Positions 31,262-38,811 of a stretch of DNA of 64,000 nt are shown one piece after another; positions within the stretch are counted from its first letter, which is position 1, and each line of letters starts with the position of its first letter. The DNA is from an uncultured delta proteobacterium. GTDB lineage: Bacteria > Myxococcota_A > Polyangia > Palsa-1104. The notes below the pieces were generated by a model. The model was not told the origin of the DNA. It saw nothing but the letters and a program-made list of their open reading frames with translations, and did no database searches. A program made the translations under genes and the position numbers. The stretch covers positions 416,001 to 480,000 of the forward strand of contig CAWAWS010000039.1 in assembly GCA_963785725.1 (NCBI GenBank). The letters run 5' to 3'.

Positions 31262-32419
31262 TTACGTGCCCTTGAAGCTCAGCCGCGGCCGCAACGTGCG
31301 CGTGATGCGCACGAGCTCGCGCTGCGCGCGCATCACGGCGCCGATGTCTTTGTAAGCCGCCGGCGCCTCTTCGCGCAGCGCCTCGGCGCGTCGATGATCG
31401 AACCACACGCCGTCGAGCTGCCGCATGAGCGCGCGCGTCGACACCTGCCGCCGCGCGTCGCCCCGCGGCAGCGCGCGGCCGGCGCCGTGCGAGCTCGACG
31501 CGAGCGCGCGCGCGACGCCGCGCCCGATGGTGTGAAAGCTCGGCGTCCCCATCGAACCGGGGATGATGCCGACCTCGCCCAAGCCCGCGGCGATCGCGCC
31601 TTTGCGATGGATCCACCATTCGGCGCCGTCGTGGAGCTCGCGCCGCGCGTGGTTGTGGTCGCAGGCAATGATGTCATCCGTCATCATTGATACGCCGAAT
31701 CGTTGGCGCATGATCTTGGCGACGGCGTCGAGCATGCGGCGGCGATTGAGGTCGGCATAGTCGATCGCCCACTGCATGTCGGACAGATACGCGCGGCCCG
31801 CTTCGCTCGTGACCTCGAGGCCGTGCAGGCCCAAGTGCCGTTCATTCGACGCGCGCAGATGATGATCGCGAATCGACTTGCCCATGATGCGCGATCCCGA
31901 GTGCACCATGAGCCACAAGCGATTGTCGTCGTCGGCTTGCAGCTCGAGGAAGTGGTTGCCGCGACCGAGCGTGCCCAATTCGCGGCGACCTTCGCGCTCG
32001 GCCAGCCGCGCCAACTGCGGATGGCTCAGCCGCTTCGCCGCCACAGTCGCCGGCAGATCGGGCGCGCGCGCCGACGGATGATGCAGCGTCGGCACCGCCG
32101 CGTACAGCGCGCCCAACAGCTGCGCGGCCGCGCCGGCGTCGTCGAGCAGCGCGGCGTCGCAGTCGAACGGCGCGGCCGCGACGCCGCAGCCGATGTCGCC
32201 GCCGACCGCCGCCGGATAGACGAGCCGCGTCGTCGCCGCCACCGTGCCGATGCAGACGTCGCCGGCCAGGTGCACGTCGGGCATGACGGCGATGCGGCGC
32301 ACGTCGTCGGCGCGCGCCAGCCGCTGCAGCGCCGCCGCGACCTCGGCCGGCAGCGGCTCGGTCAACCACGCGTCGATCGTGGCCGCAGCAGACGTGACGG
32401 TTGCCGTTTCATGCGTCAT
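31262..32419 (-). CDS. rtcB: RtcB family RNA ligase
   Basis: MPDVH, GDIGCG, GTLGRGNHFLE, HSGSR, HNH, HRKGA, PGSMG, SHGAGR, EEAPAAYK. Confidence 0.95.
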   Translation of the reverse strand: MTHETATVTSAAATIDAWLTEPLPAEVAAALQRLARADDVRRIAVMPDVHLAGDVCIGTVAATTRLVYPAAVGGDIGCGVAAAPFDCDAALLDDAGAAAQLLGALYAAVPTLHHPSARAPDLPATVAAKRLSHPQLARLAEREGRRELGTLGRGNHFLELQADDDNRLWLMVHSGSRIMGKSIRDHHLRASNERHLGLHGLEVTSEAGRAYLSDMQWAIDYADLNRRRMLDAVAKIMRQRFGVSMMTDDIIACDHNHARRELHDGAEWWIHRKGAIAAGLGEVGIIPGSMGTPSFHTIGRGVARALASSSHGAGRALPRGDARRQVSTRALMRQLDGVWFDHRRAEALREEAPAAYKDIGAVMRAQRELVRITRTLRPRLSFKGT

Positions 32420-32838
32420 TCCGGCACCTCCGCTTGCAGCGCCGGCACGATGCGAAAGGCCAGCTCCGGCGTGCGTTTTCGCTGCAGCGCTTGCGCGATC
32501 TCCTGCCGCAAGAAGCCACGTAATTCACCCAAATGCGCCAACAGCTTGGCGACGTCGACCGACAACGCGCCGGCCGGATACAGCGTCACCATCAGCCGCG
32601 AGCCGTCGGGCGCCGGCTCGACCGACATGACCGACAAGTCGCGCACCAACGAATCGCGCGACGACGAGAGCGCGACGCCCAGCGTGCGCTCGACTTCGCG
32701 GCACAGCTGCCGCGTCTTTCGTTCACTCCGTTCGTCGCGCTGCGCTTGCGGCGCACCAAAGAAGACGGACGGATCACCAATGTTACCGCACTCGTCCGGC
32801 GGCGACGCGCGCCTCCGGCGATCTCGAGAAGAGCTCAT
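32416..32838 (-). CDS. RbfA-like protein (ribosome-binding factor A paralog)
   Basis: RKTRQLCREV..L..RD..V..VEPAPDGSRLMV..GFLRQEIAQALQRKRTPELAF; ATGA overlap with rtcB; SD GGGAG. Confidence 0.8.
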   Translation of the reverse strand: MSSSRDRRRRASPPDECGNIGDPSVFFGAPQAQRDERSERKTRQLCREVERTLGVALSSSRDSLVRDLSVMSVEPAPDGSRLMVTLYPAGALSVDVAKLLAHLGELRGFLRQEIAQALQRKRTPELAFRIVPALQAEVPE

Positions 32839-32843
32839 GAAAA

Positions 32844-33005
32844 CTCCCACCAGGCGACGGCAAGAGCCGTCGCGCTCGTGTCCACGACCGATTGAAATGG
32901 GTGAGAGCCTGGCGGACGCGGCGGAGCGGAATGCTACCGAGCGACGAAGCCGAGGCTCGACGAGAAACGAAGATTCACACGCATGGTCGGCCTCCTTCGG
33001 CTTCG
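32844..33005 (-). promoter_or_regulatory. Putative translational attenuator 5' leader
   Basis: Perfect hairpin 32854-32873 next to the SD; anti-SD CTCTCACC (32900-32907) can pair with GGTGGGAG (32844-32851); leader SD region 32994-33005 can pair with 32945-32955. Confidence 0.55.
32934..32984 (-). CDS. Putative 16-aa leader peptide MRVNLRFSSSLGFVAR
   Basis: AAGGAGG SD (32991-32997) 6 nt before ATG; stops 95 nt before the RbfA-like start. Confidence 0.6.
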   Translation of the reverse strand: MRVNLRFSSSLGFVAR

Positions 33006-33160
33006 CGTTCGCGAGAGTGCGATGAGCGAAGCCGGCAAGGTAAAGATCGCTGCGCCAATCGTCAAGCGCGTCGTCGCAAACGGCTACGGCGACATGCGTT
33101 TCGTCACGGGTTGCGCGCGGCTCTTTTGACGCGGCGTCGGCGAACCTGGCAAGCTGAGGC

Positions 33161-34336
33161 GTGCGATTTGCTTTGGCGTCCTTCGCGGTCCTCACCGTCG
33201 CCTGTTCGGCGCCGACCGCCGTCGTCGTCGACTTGACCCTCGCCTCCGGCGATGCGACGCCGTCGACGTTGACGGCCAGCGTTTACGATCGCACGCACGC
33301 GCTGACGCTGCTGCGCACCGTGCCCGATCCGCGCTTTCCCGGCGCGCTGGCGCTGACCGGCCTGCCCGACTCCGCCGAGCCGCTGCGCATCGCCTTCGAC
33401 GACCCGGTCGCGCTCGCCGGCGTCACCGTCGAGCTCGCGCCGCATCACACGACGCACGTCGCCGCCGAGCTGACCGTCGCCACCGTCGACAGCGACTTGG
33501 ACGGCGTGTCCGACGCCATCGACAACTGCACGTTCGTCGCCAATCCCGACCAAGCCGACGCCAACGGCGACGGCACCGGCGACGCGTGCGCCGGCGGCCG
33601 CGACGCAGGCGCGAGCTCGGACTTGGCCTACGACGTCCCGCGCGATCTGTATGGGGCCGTCGCCAGCGCGTGCCCGATCGCCGGCACGACGCTGTGCGAA
33701 GGCTGGGAGAACGGCATCCCTGCGATCTGGCAGCCCGCCACCGACAACACCGTCACGTCCAGCGTCACCATCGACAGCGTGCACACCTACAAGGGCAACG
33801 GCGCGCTGCACCTGCACACCGCGGCCAAAGCCGGCGGCGTCTACACCGAGACCGACCTGGCGGAGACGGCGTCGTTCCCGCTGGCGACGGCGTACATGCG
33901 CACGTACGTCTACTTGCCGAGCGCCACCGAGCCGCTCGACTCGTCGATCTTGTCGCTCTACCAAAGCGACGCCGAGCCCTACGAAAACGCCTATCTCACG
34001 CTCGATAGCGGCGGGCACCTCGGCTTCGTGGACACGGTGGCGAAGTCGTCGCCGGTGTTGACCGCGCCGACGGCGATGCCGACCGATCGCTGGGTCTGCC
34101 TCGAGTGGTCGTTCACCGATCAGACGAGCGACATGGCCGGCGCCAGCGGCGCGCTCGACGTCTGGATCGACGGCGCCGAGGTGCCGGCGCTGCATGCGAC
34201 GATGAACGTCGCGTCGTGGCCGCCGTTCACGGAGTTCGCGCTCGCGCTCAACAACGAATCCGACCCGCGCCCGGCCGGCAGCGACATCTGGTTCGACGAG
34301 CTGGCCATCGGCCCGGCGCGCATCGGCTGCGAGTGA
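33161..34336 (+). CDS. Lipoprotein with thrombospondin type-3 repeat and C-terminal jelly-roll domain
   Basis: Lipobox TVAC; DSDLDGVSDAIDNCTFVANPDQADANGDGTGDAC; MPTDRWVCLEW, IWFDELAI...IGC. Confidence 0.75.
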   Translation: MRFALASFAVLTVACSAPTAVVVDLTLASGDATPSTLTASVYDRTHALTLLRTVPDPRFPGALALTGLPDSAEPLRIAFDDPVALAGVTVELAPHHTTHVAAELTVATVDSDLDGVSDAIDNCTFVANPDQADANGDGTGDACAGGRDAGASSDLAYDVPRDLYGAVASACPIAGTTLCEGWENGIPAIWQPATDNTVTSSVTIDSVHTYKGNGALHLHTAAKAGGVYTETDLAETASFPLATAYMRTYVYLPSATEPLDSSILSLYQSDAEPYENAYLTLDSGGHLGFVDTVAKSSPVLTAPTAMPTDRWVCLEWSFTDQTSDMAGASGALDVWIDGAEVPALHATMNVASWPPFTEFALALNNESDPRPAGSDIWFDELAIGPARIGCE

Positions 34337-34506
34337 CCGAGCGTGTCAAAAATAATCACCCGTCTTCGATGTATAAGTACATGAAACAGCTGACCTTGCG
34401 ATTGACGCAGCCGGGTAAGTTGCGATTACATCTGACCAAACAGTCAGGCGGAACTATCTATTGAATAAGGTATGATGTTCGTCGTCGTACCAGCGTGGAG
34501 GAAGTC

Positions 34507-35283
34507 ATGAAGACCCTGCAGATTGCGTCGCTCTCGCTCGTCCTGTTCGGATCGGGCTTGGCGTCCGCTCAAGAGCCGGCGGAAGACGCCCAGCCGCAGG
34601 CGATCCAACCGGCATCGCCACAACCGACCATGCAGCCGCCGGCGCCGCGCGTCGTGCCCGCGCCGCCGCAAACGCAGCAGCAGCAAATCGCCGTCGAGCC
34701 ACAGGCGCAGCAGCAGGCGCCTGCGAACGGCCAGTGGGTGTACACGCAGCAGAACGGCTGGCTGTGGATGCCCTATGGCCAGGAATATATGTCGCAGACG
34801 ACGGACGCCGAGGGCGCGCCCTACGAATATGTCTACGAGCCTAGCTACGGCTGGAACTGGGTCGCGGCGCCGTGGACGATCGGCATCGGCGTGAGCCCGT
34901 TCTTCGGCGTCTACGGTCCGGGCCGCTTCGGCTGGTACCATCCCGGCTTCTACACGCCGGGCTGGGCTTACGCGCACGGCTACGGTCGCGGTTACGGCTA
35001 CGGGGGTCGCGGCTTCTACGGTCACGGCGGTTACTACGGCGGCTATCGCGGCGCGCCGGCGTTCCGCGCCGGTGTCGGCGTCGGCTTCCGCGGCGCGCCC
35101 GGCGTGTATCGCGGCGGCGTCGGCTTCCGCGGCCCGTCGGTGGGCGTCGGCTTCCGCGGTCCGGTCGGCGGCGGCTTTCACGGCGCGGTCGGCGGCGGCT
35201 TCCACGGGGGTGGCGGCTTCCACGGCGGCGGCGGCGGCGGCTTCCACGGCGGTGGCGGCGGTCACGGCGGCGGTCACCGCTAA
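34507..35283 (+). CDS. Secreted Gln/Pro- and Gly-rich protein
   Basis: Signal peptide, GQWVYTQQNGWLWMPYG core, GVGFRG and GGFHG repeats; SD GGAGG. Confidence 0.8.
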   Translation: MKTLQIASLSLVLFGSGLASAQEPAEDAQPQAIQPASPQPTMQPPAPRVVPAPPQTQQQQIAVEPQAQQQAPANGQWVYTQQNGWLWMPYGQEYMSQTTDAEGAPYEYVYEPSYGWNWVAAPWTIGIGVSPFFGVYGPGRFGWYHPGFYTPGWAYAHGYGRGYGYGGRGFYGHGGYYGGYRGAPAFRAGVGVGFRGAPGVYRGGVGFRGPSVGVGFRGPVGGGFHGAVGGGFHGGGGFHGGGGGGFHGGGGGHGGGHR

Positions 35284-37051: not shown

Positions 37052-37267
37052 AGCCAAGCATCGCTTCAGCCATTTCGCCTACCGTTCGATCTAACTGGAC
37101 GTTCGTCGCGCCTAGTCTAGTCGGCGTAGCCAAACGCGCTCGATCGGGCGCGACGCTGGCTTCTCCGGCGCGAACGAAGTGGCCGGGCGCGACTGCAAAC
37201 GAACGTGCGCGACGGTTGATCGCGCGCACACGAGGCCCCGATTTGGCGCGCGGGTACACTCACGAGG

Positions 37268-37564
37268 ATGGCCAAGCTCATCGATTGTGCGACGTGCGGC
37301 GGGCTGATTCCGGCGGATCGACGCTGCTGTCCCCATTGCCATTGTAAGACTTCGTTGTGGAAGCATTGGGCGCTGGCGCTGTCGGCCGCGCTCGGGCTCG
37401 GCGCCGCCGGCTGCGACTCGACGACGGTTGTCACGCACTACGGCGGCGCGATGATCGGCGGTGGCGGCGGAAGCAGCGGCGGCGGCGGCACGATCGCGCG
37501 CGACATGGCCGTGCCCGACTCGAGCGGCGGCGACGACGCGGGGAATCCCGACGGCGGCAAGTGA
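37268..37564 (+). CDS. Zn-ribbon + lipoprotein-like small protein; putative radical SAM substrate
   Basis: CATC-x10-CPHC, hydrophobic helix, LGAAGC lipobox, VVTHYGG; GTGA overlap with the radical SAM gene. Confidence 0.75.
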   Translation: MAKLIDCATCGGLIPADRRCCPHCHCKTSLWKHWALALSAALGLGAAGCDSTTVVTHYGGAMIGGGGGSSGGGGTIARDMAVPDSSGGDDAGNPDGGK

Positions 37565-38811
37565 CCGACGAGCTCGTGCAGCTGCGGCAGTCGTCGCGGC
37601 GGCCCGATCACGCGCGCGCTGAGCATCCGCGTTATGTCGTGTGGGAGCTGACGCTGAAGTGCGATCAGCGCTGCGCGCACTGCGGCTCGCGCGCGGCCGA
37701 GGCGCGCGACGACGAGCTGACGACGGACGAGGCGCTCGACGTCGTGCGCCAGCTTCAGGCGGCGGGCGCGCAAGAGGTGACGCTCATCGGCGGCGAGGCC
37801 TATTTGCACGCGGGATTCCTCGCCGTCGCGCGCGCCGTCGTCGCCGCCGGCATGCGCCTGACGATGACGACCGGTGGCCGCGCGCTCACCGCCGAATTGG
37901 CCGCGCAGCTGGCCGCCGTCGGCATGTACTCGGTCGCCGTCAGCGTCGACGGGCTGCGCGCCACGCACGATCTCGTGCGCGCGCGGCGCGGCAGCTTCGA
38001 TGACGCGCTGGCGGCCATCGCCCACGTGCGCGCGGCCGGGTTGCCGGCCGGCTGCAACACGGTCGTCAATCGGCTGAACGTCGACGAGCTGGAGACGCTG
38101 TTCGAGACGCTGGTGGCGGCGGGAATTCGCGGCTGGCAGGTGCAGCTGGTCGTGCCGATGGGGCGCGCCGCCGACCGACCGGACCTCTTGCTGCAGCCGT
38201 GGCAGCTGCTCGAGCTGGTGCCGCGGATCGCGCGGCTCAAAGAGCGCGCCTTCGCCGCCGGCATCCTGCTCATGCCCGGCAATAATGTCGGTTACTACAG
38301 CCGCGACGAGAAGCTCTTGCGCTCGGTCGAGCCCGGCGGCCGCGATCATTGGCGCGGCTGTCAGGCCGGCCGCTTCGTCATGGGCATCGAGTCGAACGGC
38401 GCCGTCAAAGGCTGCCCGTCCTTGCCGACGCGCGGGTACGTCGGCGGCAACGTGCGCGACCGCTCGCTGGCCAGCATCTGGGACGACACGCCCGAGCTCG
38501 CCTTCGCCCGCGTCCGTACCGTCGACGATTTGTGGGGCTTTTGTCGCAGCTGCCCGTTCGCCGAGAGCTGCCTCGCCGGCTGCACGTTCACGACGCATTC
38601 GTTGCTCGGTCGCCCCGGCAATAATGTCTATTGTCATTATAGGGCCAAGACGTTGGCCGCCGAGGGCTTGCGCGAGCGGCTGGTGCCGGCGGCGCGCGCG
38701 CCGGGCGAGCCGTTCGATTACGGCCGCTACGACATCGTGTGTGAACCGATCGACGCGCCGGCGCCGCCGCCCGCGCGGGGCCTGGCCGCATTGCGCGTCT
38801 GGCGCGGCTGA
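37561..38811 (+). CDS. Radical SAM/SPASM protein
   Basis: VWELTLKCDQRCAHCGS (CX3CX2C), LIGGE; SPASM CQAG..GAVKGC..CRSC..SCLAGC..YCHYR. Confidence 0.95.
   Translation: MTDELVQLRQSSRRPDHARAEHPRYVVWELTLKCDQRCAHCGSRAAEARDDELTTDEALDVVRQLQAAGAQEVTLIGGEAYLHAGFLAVARAVVAAGMRLTMTTGGRALTAELAAQLAAVGMYSVAVSVDGLRATHDLVRARRGSFDDALAAIAHVRAAGLPAGCNTVVNRLNVDELETLFETLVAAGIRGWQVQLVVPMGRAADRPDLLLQPWQLLELVPRIARLKERAFAAGILLMPGNNVGYYSRDEKLLRSVEPGGRDHWRGCQAGRFVMGIESNGAVKGCPSLPTRGYVGGNVRDRSLASIWDDTPELAFARVRTVDDLWGFCRSCPFAESCLAGCTFTTHSLLGRPGNNVYCHYRAKTLAAEGLRERLVPAARAPGEPFDYGRYDIVCEPIDAPAPPPARGLAALRVWRG

Follow-up and report, generated by a model that had tools for sequence, protein, structure and literature searches.

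The closest described relatives of the gene pair considered here are the spliceases. In the available text of PMC11414181, the known enzymes act at XYG motifs, those from outside the cyanobacteria form two-gene systems without a Y protein, and a Y protein or leader helix still works when it is moved between precursor and enzyme. PlpX, a member of IPR026482, excises tyramine at Xaa-Tyr-Gly (PMC11002830, available portion); splicing entails the loss of C8H9NO, and spliced peptides inhibit proteases whereas unspliced peptides do not (PMC11626197, available portion). The native products of spliceotide loci were unknown as of a 2022 review (PMC9811515, available portion). A separate precedent is provided by the DAG-RiPPs, for which the accessible text of a preprint describes a RiPP that is modified in the cytoplasm and then lipidated through the lipoprotein pathway, the modification being fast enough to rival export (PMC12636315).

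The pair lies in a stretch of 64,000 nucleotides from an uncultured delta proteobacterium, called the window below, and its features are listed in Table 1. As stated in the original prediction, a 98-amino-acid ORF with CxxC and CPHC motifs, a hydrophobic stretch, a cysteine at about residue 49, a single tyrosine and a Gly/Asp tail overlaps a full radical SAM/SPASM gene by the sequence GTGA. The 416-amino-acid product of the latter scored above both Pfam cut-offs (Radical_SAM, 80.5 bits; SPASM, 30.9 bits over residues 267-332). The noted absence of an adjoining protease or transporter was also borne out: the pair is preceded by an Hsp70-like gene and followed, on the opposite strand, by MnmC-like and Tgt genes. 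Third-position GC was 0.84 in the partner and 0.90 in the enzyme, in line with coding frames. The partner reads C7-x2-C10-x10-C21-P-H-C24, K32, 16 uncharged residues, AAG-C49, an 8-residue spacer, H57-Y58-G59 and the Gly/Asp tail; its cysteines are at positions 7, 10, 20, 21, 24, 26 and 49, and its sole tyrosine, Y58, is followed by G59-G60. It had no Pfam match and no relevant NCBIfam match, and the ESM Atlas returned unnamed myxobacterial clusters only. The same genome encodes a second pair (G000:C16, L001:6215-7752, minus strand) with an enzyme 65% identical to the first and a partner of the majority LMAC-YG form that also bears an SRRLFK Tat-like motif; a profile search of the genome found two partner genes in total, each adjoining its own enzyme.

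Table 1. Positions of the features discussed; coordinates are those of the window unless a locus is named.
Feature	Position	Strand	Basis
Partner gene, 98 aa, predicted zinc-ribbon lipoprotein precursor, likely substrate	37268..37564	+	Motifs, profile matches, alignment A3
CxxC-x10-CPHC zinc ribbon (C7, C10, C21, C24), inferred docking/activating module	37286..37339	+	Four Cys invariant in 73-row A3
16 uncharged residues after K32 (33-48), closed by lipobox-like AAG-C49 (predicted site of signal peptidase II cleavage)	37364..37414	+	Sequence
His57-Tyr58-Gly59, predicted XYG splice site	37436..37444	+	Y58 and G59 invariant in A3 (73-row alignment)
Gly/Asp-rich variable tail	37445..37561	+	MopE-type or acidic disulfide repeats at this place in relatives
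Radical SAM/SPASM enzyme, splicease group, 416 aa, GTG start	37561..38811	+	HMM scores, Pfam, identity, tree
CxxxCxxC radical SAM cluster motif (C34, C38, C41)	37660..37683	+	Invariant in 76 enzymes
SPASM cysteines C267, C285, C328, C331, C337, C341, C358	38359..38634	+	Invariant in 76 enzymes
TIGR04133-adjacent lipoproteins	L136:2578-3420, L137:3062-3451, L138:4511-4999		

A promoter and terminator scan of the pair yielded nothing useful, and one metatranscriptome gave a contig of 189 bases within the enzyme gene (depth 3) together with two short GC-rich pieces, which is not evidence of expression or of operon structure. The hexamer TACACT (37255-37260) stands 7 bases 5' of the partner ATG, as in a leaderless transcript; TAnnnT was present 5-8 bases 5' of a start in 10 of 71 relatives, with several starts allowed per gene, compared with 0.9% of ATGs generally. 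About 2 kb upstream of the pair, a 262-amino-acid signal-peptide protein (34495-35283) has a Tyr/Gly-rich middle with many Tyr-Gly pairs; it had no family match and is not recurrent near the enzymes. On the minus strand, an ORF that we take from its motifs to be RtcB-like adjoins an RbfA-like ORF (31262-33195).

A scan of GTDB genomes identified 229 relatives of the enzyme, and the loci of the best 80, most of them titled myxobacteria or deltaproteobacteria, were combined with the paralogous locus of this genome. A partner was found by profile search within the fetched flanks in 72 of these 81 loci, so the pairing is not a matter of chance, and homologous enzymes keep the partner as had been anticipated. 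Three of the nine loci without a match have little or no upstream DNA; the genomes of five of the other six were searched, and all five encode a strong partner elsewhere with no enzyme within 1.5 kb. The 75 partner matches were upstream on the same strand (45), divergent (29) or downstream of the enzyme (1), and one close partner homolog is labelled Polyangia, which makes a myxobacterial host probable. Among 41 related genomes, some of which are incomplete and some of which overlap the 80 loci, a full partner (E below 1e-9) was present in 10, the enzyme in 11 and neither gene in 30, weak matches to generic kinase-type zinc ribbons lacking a lipobox or Tyr-Gly having been dropped before this count (9 of 19 genomes); all 12 full partner genes adjoin an enzyme. 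The eleventh genome encodes more distant enzymes, the neighbours of which again show a ribbon, a hydrophobic run and a lipobox-like cysteine. Seven partner genes of this distant subfamily were seen, with up to four xYG sites each. In loci L132, L133, L134, L135, L128 and L129 the repeated xYG sites lie in Pro/Gly-rich tails of ribbon-lipoprotein-like genes; in L132 partners flank the enzyme on both sides, and L129 encodes a protein of more than 900 residues that begins with the ribbon and signal. No third gene recurs across the enzyme loci, and none of the window neighbours does so. In 16 of 82 loci (L048:5213-8320 and 15 others), nearly all of which belong to one syntenic Kofleriaceae-type lineage, the enzyme is followed by a peptidase with an S9-like C-terminal motif, named from the motif and not from a family scan, which could be a target or mere synteny. 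In L067 partner and enzyme seem to be fused, but the joined frame crosses an N gap and was rejected as an assembly artefact. The pair is a real, conserved two-gene system, and the partner is, as judged from its motifs, a member of an unnamed myxobacterial family with a zinc ribbon, a hydrophobic stretch, a lipobox-like cysteine, Tyr-Gly and a variable acidic tail.

The enzyme scored below the cut-offs of all three named families proposed for comparison: 452.1 bits against 725 for TIGR04103, which we take to be equivalent to IPR026482; 415.6 bits against 591.75 for TIGR03913, the profile being matched only to position 393 of 477; and 149.8 bits against 425 for TIGR04133. True members of TIGR04103 and TIGR03913 gave 435 and 415 bits on each other's model. 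These cross-scores resemble those of the window enzyme, which is thus about as close to each family as the two are to one another. The enzyme was 48% identical to the Nostoc TIGR04103 enzyme, 43-46% identical to three GDL-type enzymes and 26-28% identical to three of the TIGR04133 type, and 60 positions were invariant across 28 enzymes of the splicease-like group. In an unrooted IQ-TREE phylogeny of 32 sequences, these 28 grouped together (UFBoot 100) against Agathobacter and TIGR04133; support was 100 for the main myxobacterial clade and 88 for the five-member subclade of the window enzyme. The order of the deep groups, including the nesting of cyanobacterial and GDL enzymes among the lipoprotein-linked ones, had bootstrap values of 62-73, and we therefore claim no ancestral state. 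The AlphaFold model (pLDDT 90) has a barrel from about residue 25, with neither a separate N-terminal recognition domain nor a C-terminal ribbon. Kinship with the splicease families rather than with TIGR04133 thus stands on scores, identity and tree, while membership of any of the named families does not, and at the level of sequence comparison the enzyme is confirmed as a splicease-group radical SAM/SPASM protein.

Conservation of the Tyr-Gly motif in the partners, on which the original prediction depended, was evident in all eight close homologs and in 74 of 75 profile matches, the remaining one being a frameshifted fragment. As the first profile had been seeded with Tyr-Gly sequences, the count was repeated blind to the motif: ORFs were selected for a ribbon, a hydrophobic run and a cysteine within 1.3 kb of an enzyme, and Tyr-Gly was scored within 10 residues of the cysteine. 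It was present in 69 of 69 partners and at 2 of 283 control lipobox-like starts of this genome. The usual form is Cys-Tyr-Gly (64/74), and a spacer of 3-8 residues separates the cysteine from the motif in the other 10; the window partner, with 8 residues, is of the spacer form, which arose on several branches. In partners P0008 and P0010 Tyr-Gly lies some 25-27 residues beyond the cysteine. The residue before the tyrosine varies (C, V, I, L, A or H) and the glycine is invariant, which is the XYG pattern. The tails that follow differ widely and are in many cases short; 68 of 72 family members have a net acidic tail, and of 29 partners scanned eight contain MopE-type repeats and two acidic disulfide repeats. 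Given this pattern, the tyrosine of the partner is very probably the target of the enzyme.

In all 72 partners 11-24 uncharged residues (median 16) run up to a cysteine, and the window partner has the expected succession of a basic residue (K32), a hydrophobic run and C49. The signal cysteine of a lipoprotein normally lies within about 35 residues of the N-terminus. The late position remarked on in the original prediction was found here, at residue 49, and throughout the family, at 45-65; the signal is not at the extreme N-terminus, a family trait that results from the N-terminal ribbon. Translation from an internal TTG, codon 30, would yield a textbook signal peptide; the long form of the partner is nevertheless favoured because the ribbon is invariant. 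The strict lipobox [LVI][ASTVI][GAS]C, as given in the available text of PMC12462473, is absent from the window partner (AAGC) and present in 16 of 72 relatives, the commonest sequence being LMAC (46/72). Where Tyr-Gly has shifted away from the cysteine, the latter still closes the run, and the two are therefore kept separately. Genes for Lgt, LspA and Lnt are present in the genome; there are eight Lgt-family matches on several contigs, some clustered with LspA matches on contig C2. Tat export was considered as a family trait and rejected, with a Tat-like motif in only one of 72 partners, so that any modification must outrun Sec export. From these features we think that the partner is probably lipidated. 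In the Cys-Tyr-Gly majority, splicing would alter the lipidated cysteine itself, a substrate that Lgt or LspA might not accept.

The ribbon occurred on the substrate or on the enzyme, and never on both, in the loci examined. A C-terminal ribbon was found on none of the 75 main-clade and none of the five distant enzymes with ribbon-bearing partners and, the Nostoc system aside, a ribbon was found on all six examined enzymes whose neighbours lack one. The GDL-type enzymes of Azospirillum (two) and Aureibacter end in CxxC-x10-CPHC and a helix, a Tropicibacter enzyme has the ribbon at its N-terminus, and two myxobacterial enzymes without a ribbon-bearing neighbour carry it at the C-terminus (L130:3130-5402, L131:339-1750). 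The Nostoc enzyme is ribbon-less and is followed by a 71-amino-acid gene at the place expected of the Y gene. Weak matches to TIGR03913 profile positions 427-459 (E 0.01-0.03) were obtained with three of 29 partners. Against a profile built from the ribbons of the seven distant partners, four enzyme-borne ribbons scored 23-36 bits, compared with 16 for the best of 92 ribbon motifs in the genome; on the main-clade ribbon profile they scored 11-14 bits, which 8-11 of the 92 equalled. Enzyme and substrate ribbons are thus linked specifically in the case of the distant subfamily, and indirectly in that of the ribbon in the window. This either-or placement suggests that the ribbon is likely a docking module, and since a Y protein or leader helix can be moved between precursor and enzyme (PMC11414181, available text), we infer that the ribbon and the helix after it form the docking element. 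Two of these loci have further features: a larger protein encoded 5' of the L130 enzyme ends in a Tyr-Gly-x9-Gly-Asp segment resembling GDL-type peptides, and on the Tropicibacter plasmid (L085:3680-5302) the splicease-like enzyme adjoins a second radical SAM gene, a phosphotransferase, a trypsin-like peptidase and an M23 peptidase.

We lean towards a scheme in which tyramine would be excised at His57-Tyr58-Gly59, after which the product would receive its lipid at Cys49 and be held on the membrane as a small keto-amide lipoprotein; excision by the enzyme, taken by itself, is probable. The precursor would dock on the enzyme in the cytoplasm through the zinc ribbon and following helix, in place of a Y protein or leader helix, and would lose C8H9NO (135.07 Da; 135.06 Da in PMC11626197) to leave an alpha-keto-beta-His residue. 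Sec export would be followed by diacylglycerylation at Cys49, cleavage by signal peptidase II, which would discard the ribbon and helix, and N-acylation. The mature product would be an anchored peptide of roughly 50 residues with a keto-amide near the membrane. With the general lipoprotein pathway handling export and cleavage, no dedicated protease or transporter would be needed. The last step is the weakest: because spliced and not unspliced peptides inhibit proteases, the anchored keto-amide might inhibit or trap a serine or cysteine protease of the periplasm or surface, and protease trapping at the envelope is our guess at a function. The late non-canonical lipobox, the need for modification to outrun Sec export, the altered cysteine of the Cys-Tyr-Gly majority, the indirect ribbon link and the enzyme scores below curated cut-offs count against the scheme, as does the presence of a partner with no enzyme nearby in all five genomes tested in which an enzyme lacked a neighbouring partner.

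One alternative is that tyramine is excised, but the hydrophobic stretch is an enzyme-binding helix or an uncleaved inner-membrane anchor and Cys49 is never lipidated. The activation of type II spliceases by a leader helix (PMC11414181, available text) would be consistent with this, as would the unusual lipobox and the ribbon-then-helix end of the GDL-type enzymes. We nevertheless regard it as fairly unlikely, given that the cysteine still closes the hydrophobic run when Tyr-Gly is 3-8 or about 25-27 residues away, that the tails hold acidic, Cys-rich repeats and that lipoproteins of the TIGR04134 type, which have ordinary N-terminal signals, share the Cys-then-Tyr-Gly layout. Another possibility is that Tyr58 is the target of other radical chemistry, such as a Tyr-His or Tyr-Cys crosslink of the kind made by other SPASM maturases. 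Searches of the PDB returned no splicease structure and only distant radical SAM enzymes, the nearest solved folds being those of the crosslink-forming SkfB, PqqE and SuiB (16-22% identity); the enzyme falls short of the TIGR04103 cut-off, and the cysteine adjoins the tyrosine in most matches. Against this, the 43-48% identity to TIGR04103 and GDL-type enzymes, the positions held invariant across the splicease-like group and the variable residue before Tyr with its invariant Gly argue for splicing, and crosslinking seems unlikely.

It could also be that splicing and lipidation are alternative fates: modification would block lipoprotein maturation or redirect it, the pair would act as a switch under the control of zinc or Fe-S status, and the keto-amide would not be a displayed warhead. 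In the majority form X is the lipobox cysteine and the Tyr to be excised stands at +2, and the variability and frequent shortness of the tails and the lack of a conserved third gene would fit such a switch; however, the spacer forms, that of the window included, place the site away from the cysteine on several branches, and partners of the distant subfamily have as many as four xYG copies well removed from it, making a switch quite improbable. That the small protein is instead a regulator or membrane tether of the enzyme, with the true substrate encoded elsewhere, would account for the few enzymes that sit apart from a partner, but an invariant Tyr-Gly inside an otherwise variable region fits a substrate and pairing in this genome is one-to-one; we consider this role very improbable.

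The chemistry and the enzyme group are already known; the substrate architecture is without a Pfam or NCBIfam family. A full-text search for splicease with lipoprotein gave no paper, and papers found by family accession did not concern the pair, although Scott et al. 2022 may cover it: that survey, as cited in the available text of PMC10849128, counted 189 genera with splicease-like enzymes, confirmed 27 pairs and, as cited in the supplement of PMC11414181, defines spliceotide types up to V, and so may well include the ribbon-lipoprotein family. What is added here is the count made blind to Tyr-Gly with its control, the either-or placement of the ribbon and the parallel with TIGR04134. Whether spliced lipoproteins exist in myxobacteria and, by way of TIGR04133/04134, in Bacteroidota and spirochaetes, with a non-alpha-amino-acid backbone, a keto-amide beside the lipid-bearing cysteine (or, in the Cys-Tyr-Gly majority, within it) and a mobile, disposable ribbon ahead of the signal, as a combination not described before, is doubtful, if conceivable. 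A lipid-anchored product, if real, would direct the search for native products to the membrane fraction of cultured myxobacteria with the pair (Sorangium, Corallococcus, Pyxidicoccus and Citreicoccus), would add radical SAM backbone splicing to the chemistries known from RiPP-lipoprotein hybrids and would equip the cell envelope with a keto-amide that blocks proteases. Tools for protein splicing with a single component could use the ribbon as a new recognition module.

Compared with described systems, the pair is closest in outline to the type I PlpAXY/PcpAXY systems (TIGR04103, IPR026482), with an enzyme of the same radical SAM/SPASM group, near the Nostoc member in identity, and an adjacent XYG precursor; it differs in having no Nif11/NHLP leader and in the zinc ribbon and lipoprotein-like signal of the precursor, and ORFs of 60 amino acids or more 3' of the window enzyme included no candidate small gene for a Y protein. 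Like the type II RhaA/RhaX systems (PMC11414181, PMC11626197, available text), it consists of an enzyme and a precursor only, the N-terminus of the precursor being thought to supply the activating element; their leaders are delimited at a double-Gly site (PMC11414181 supplement), whereas the N-terminus here is a ribbon with a predicted signal peptidase II signal, RhaX and the partner being set apart by description and not by sequence comparison. The TIGR03913 GDL-type systems have similar enzymes that bear the CxxC-x10-CPHC ribbon at the C-terminus, and Y-x10-GDL (DUF1843) peptides adjoin those of Azospirillum and Aureibacter; the window enzyme is ribbon-less and its partner has neither the Y-x10-GDL motif nor a DUF1843 match. 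DAG-RiPPs such as DybA/DybH (PMC12636315, preprint) likewise combine cytoplasmic modification with lipidation by the general lipoprotein pathway in a minimal two-gene cluster, but there an MNIO modifies a Cys motif at the C-terminus, and the main text of the preprint mentions neither radical SAM enzymes nor spliceotides. The TIGR04133/TIGR04134 pairs share the gene logic and the substrate signature of a lipobox Cys followed by Tyr-Gly, although their lipoproteins begin with an ordinary signal, lack a ribbon and are larger in the mature region, and no TIGR04134 match was found for the partner or anywhere in the genome. In all three TIGR04133-adjacent lipoproteins inspected, from Parabacteroides and Treponema (annotated) and Phocaeicola (unannotated), Tyr-Gly-x-Pro follows the lipobox Cys, with spacers of 9, 0 and 11 residues, the Treponema protein reading Cys-Tyr-Gly. 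In this small sample (n = 3) Tyr-Gly-x-Pro is likely the target site of that uncharacterised family, which would give the pairs of gut Bacteroidota a testable target residue; their enzymes are too distant for the chemistry to be safely inferred. With an enzyme of the PlpX group and a linked precursor with a conserved XYG, the window pair has the sequence features of the spliceotide class, whose chemical hallmark is a loss of C8H9NO that gives an alpha-keto-beta-amide.
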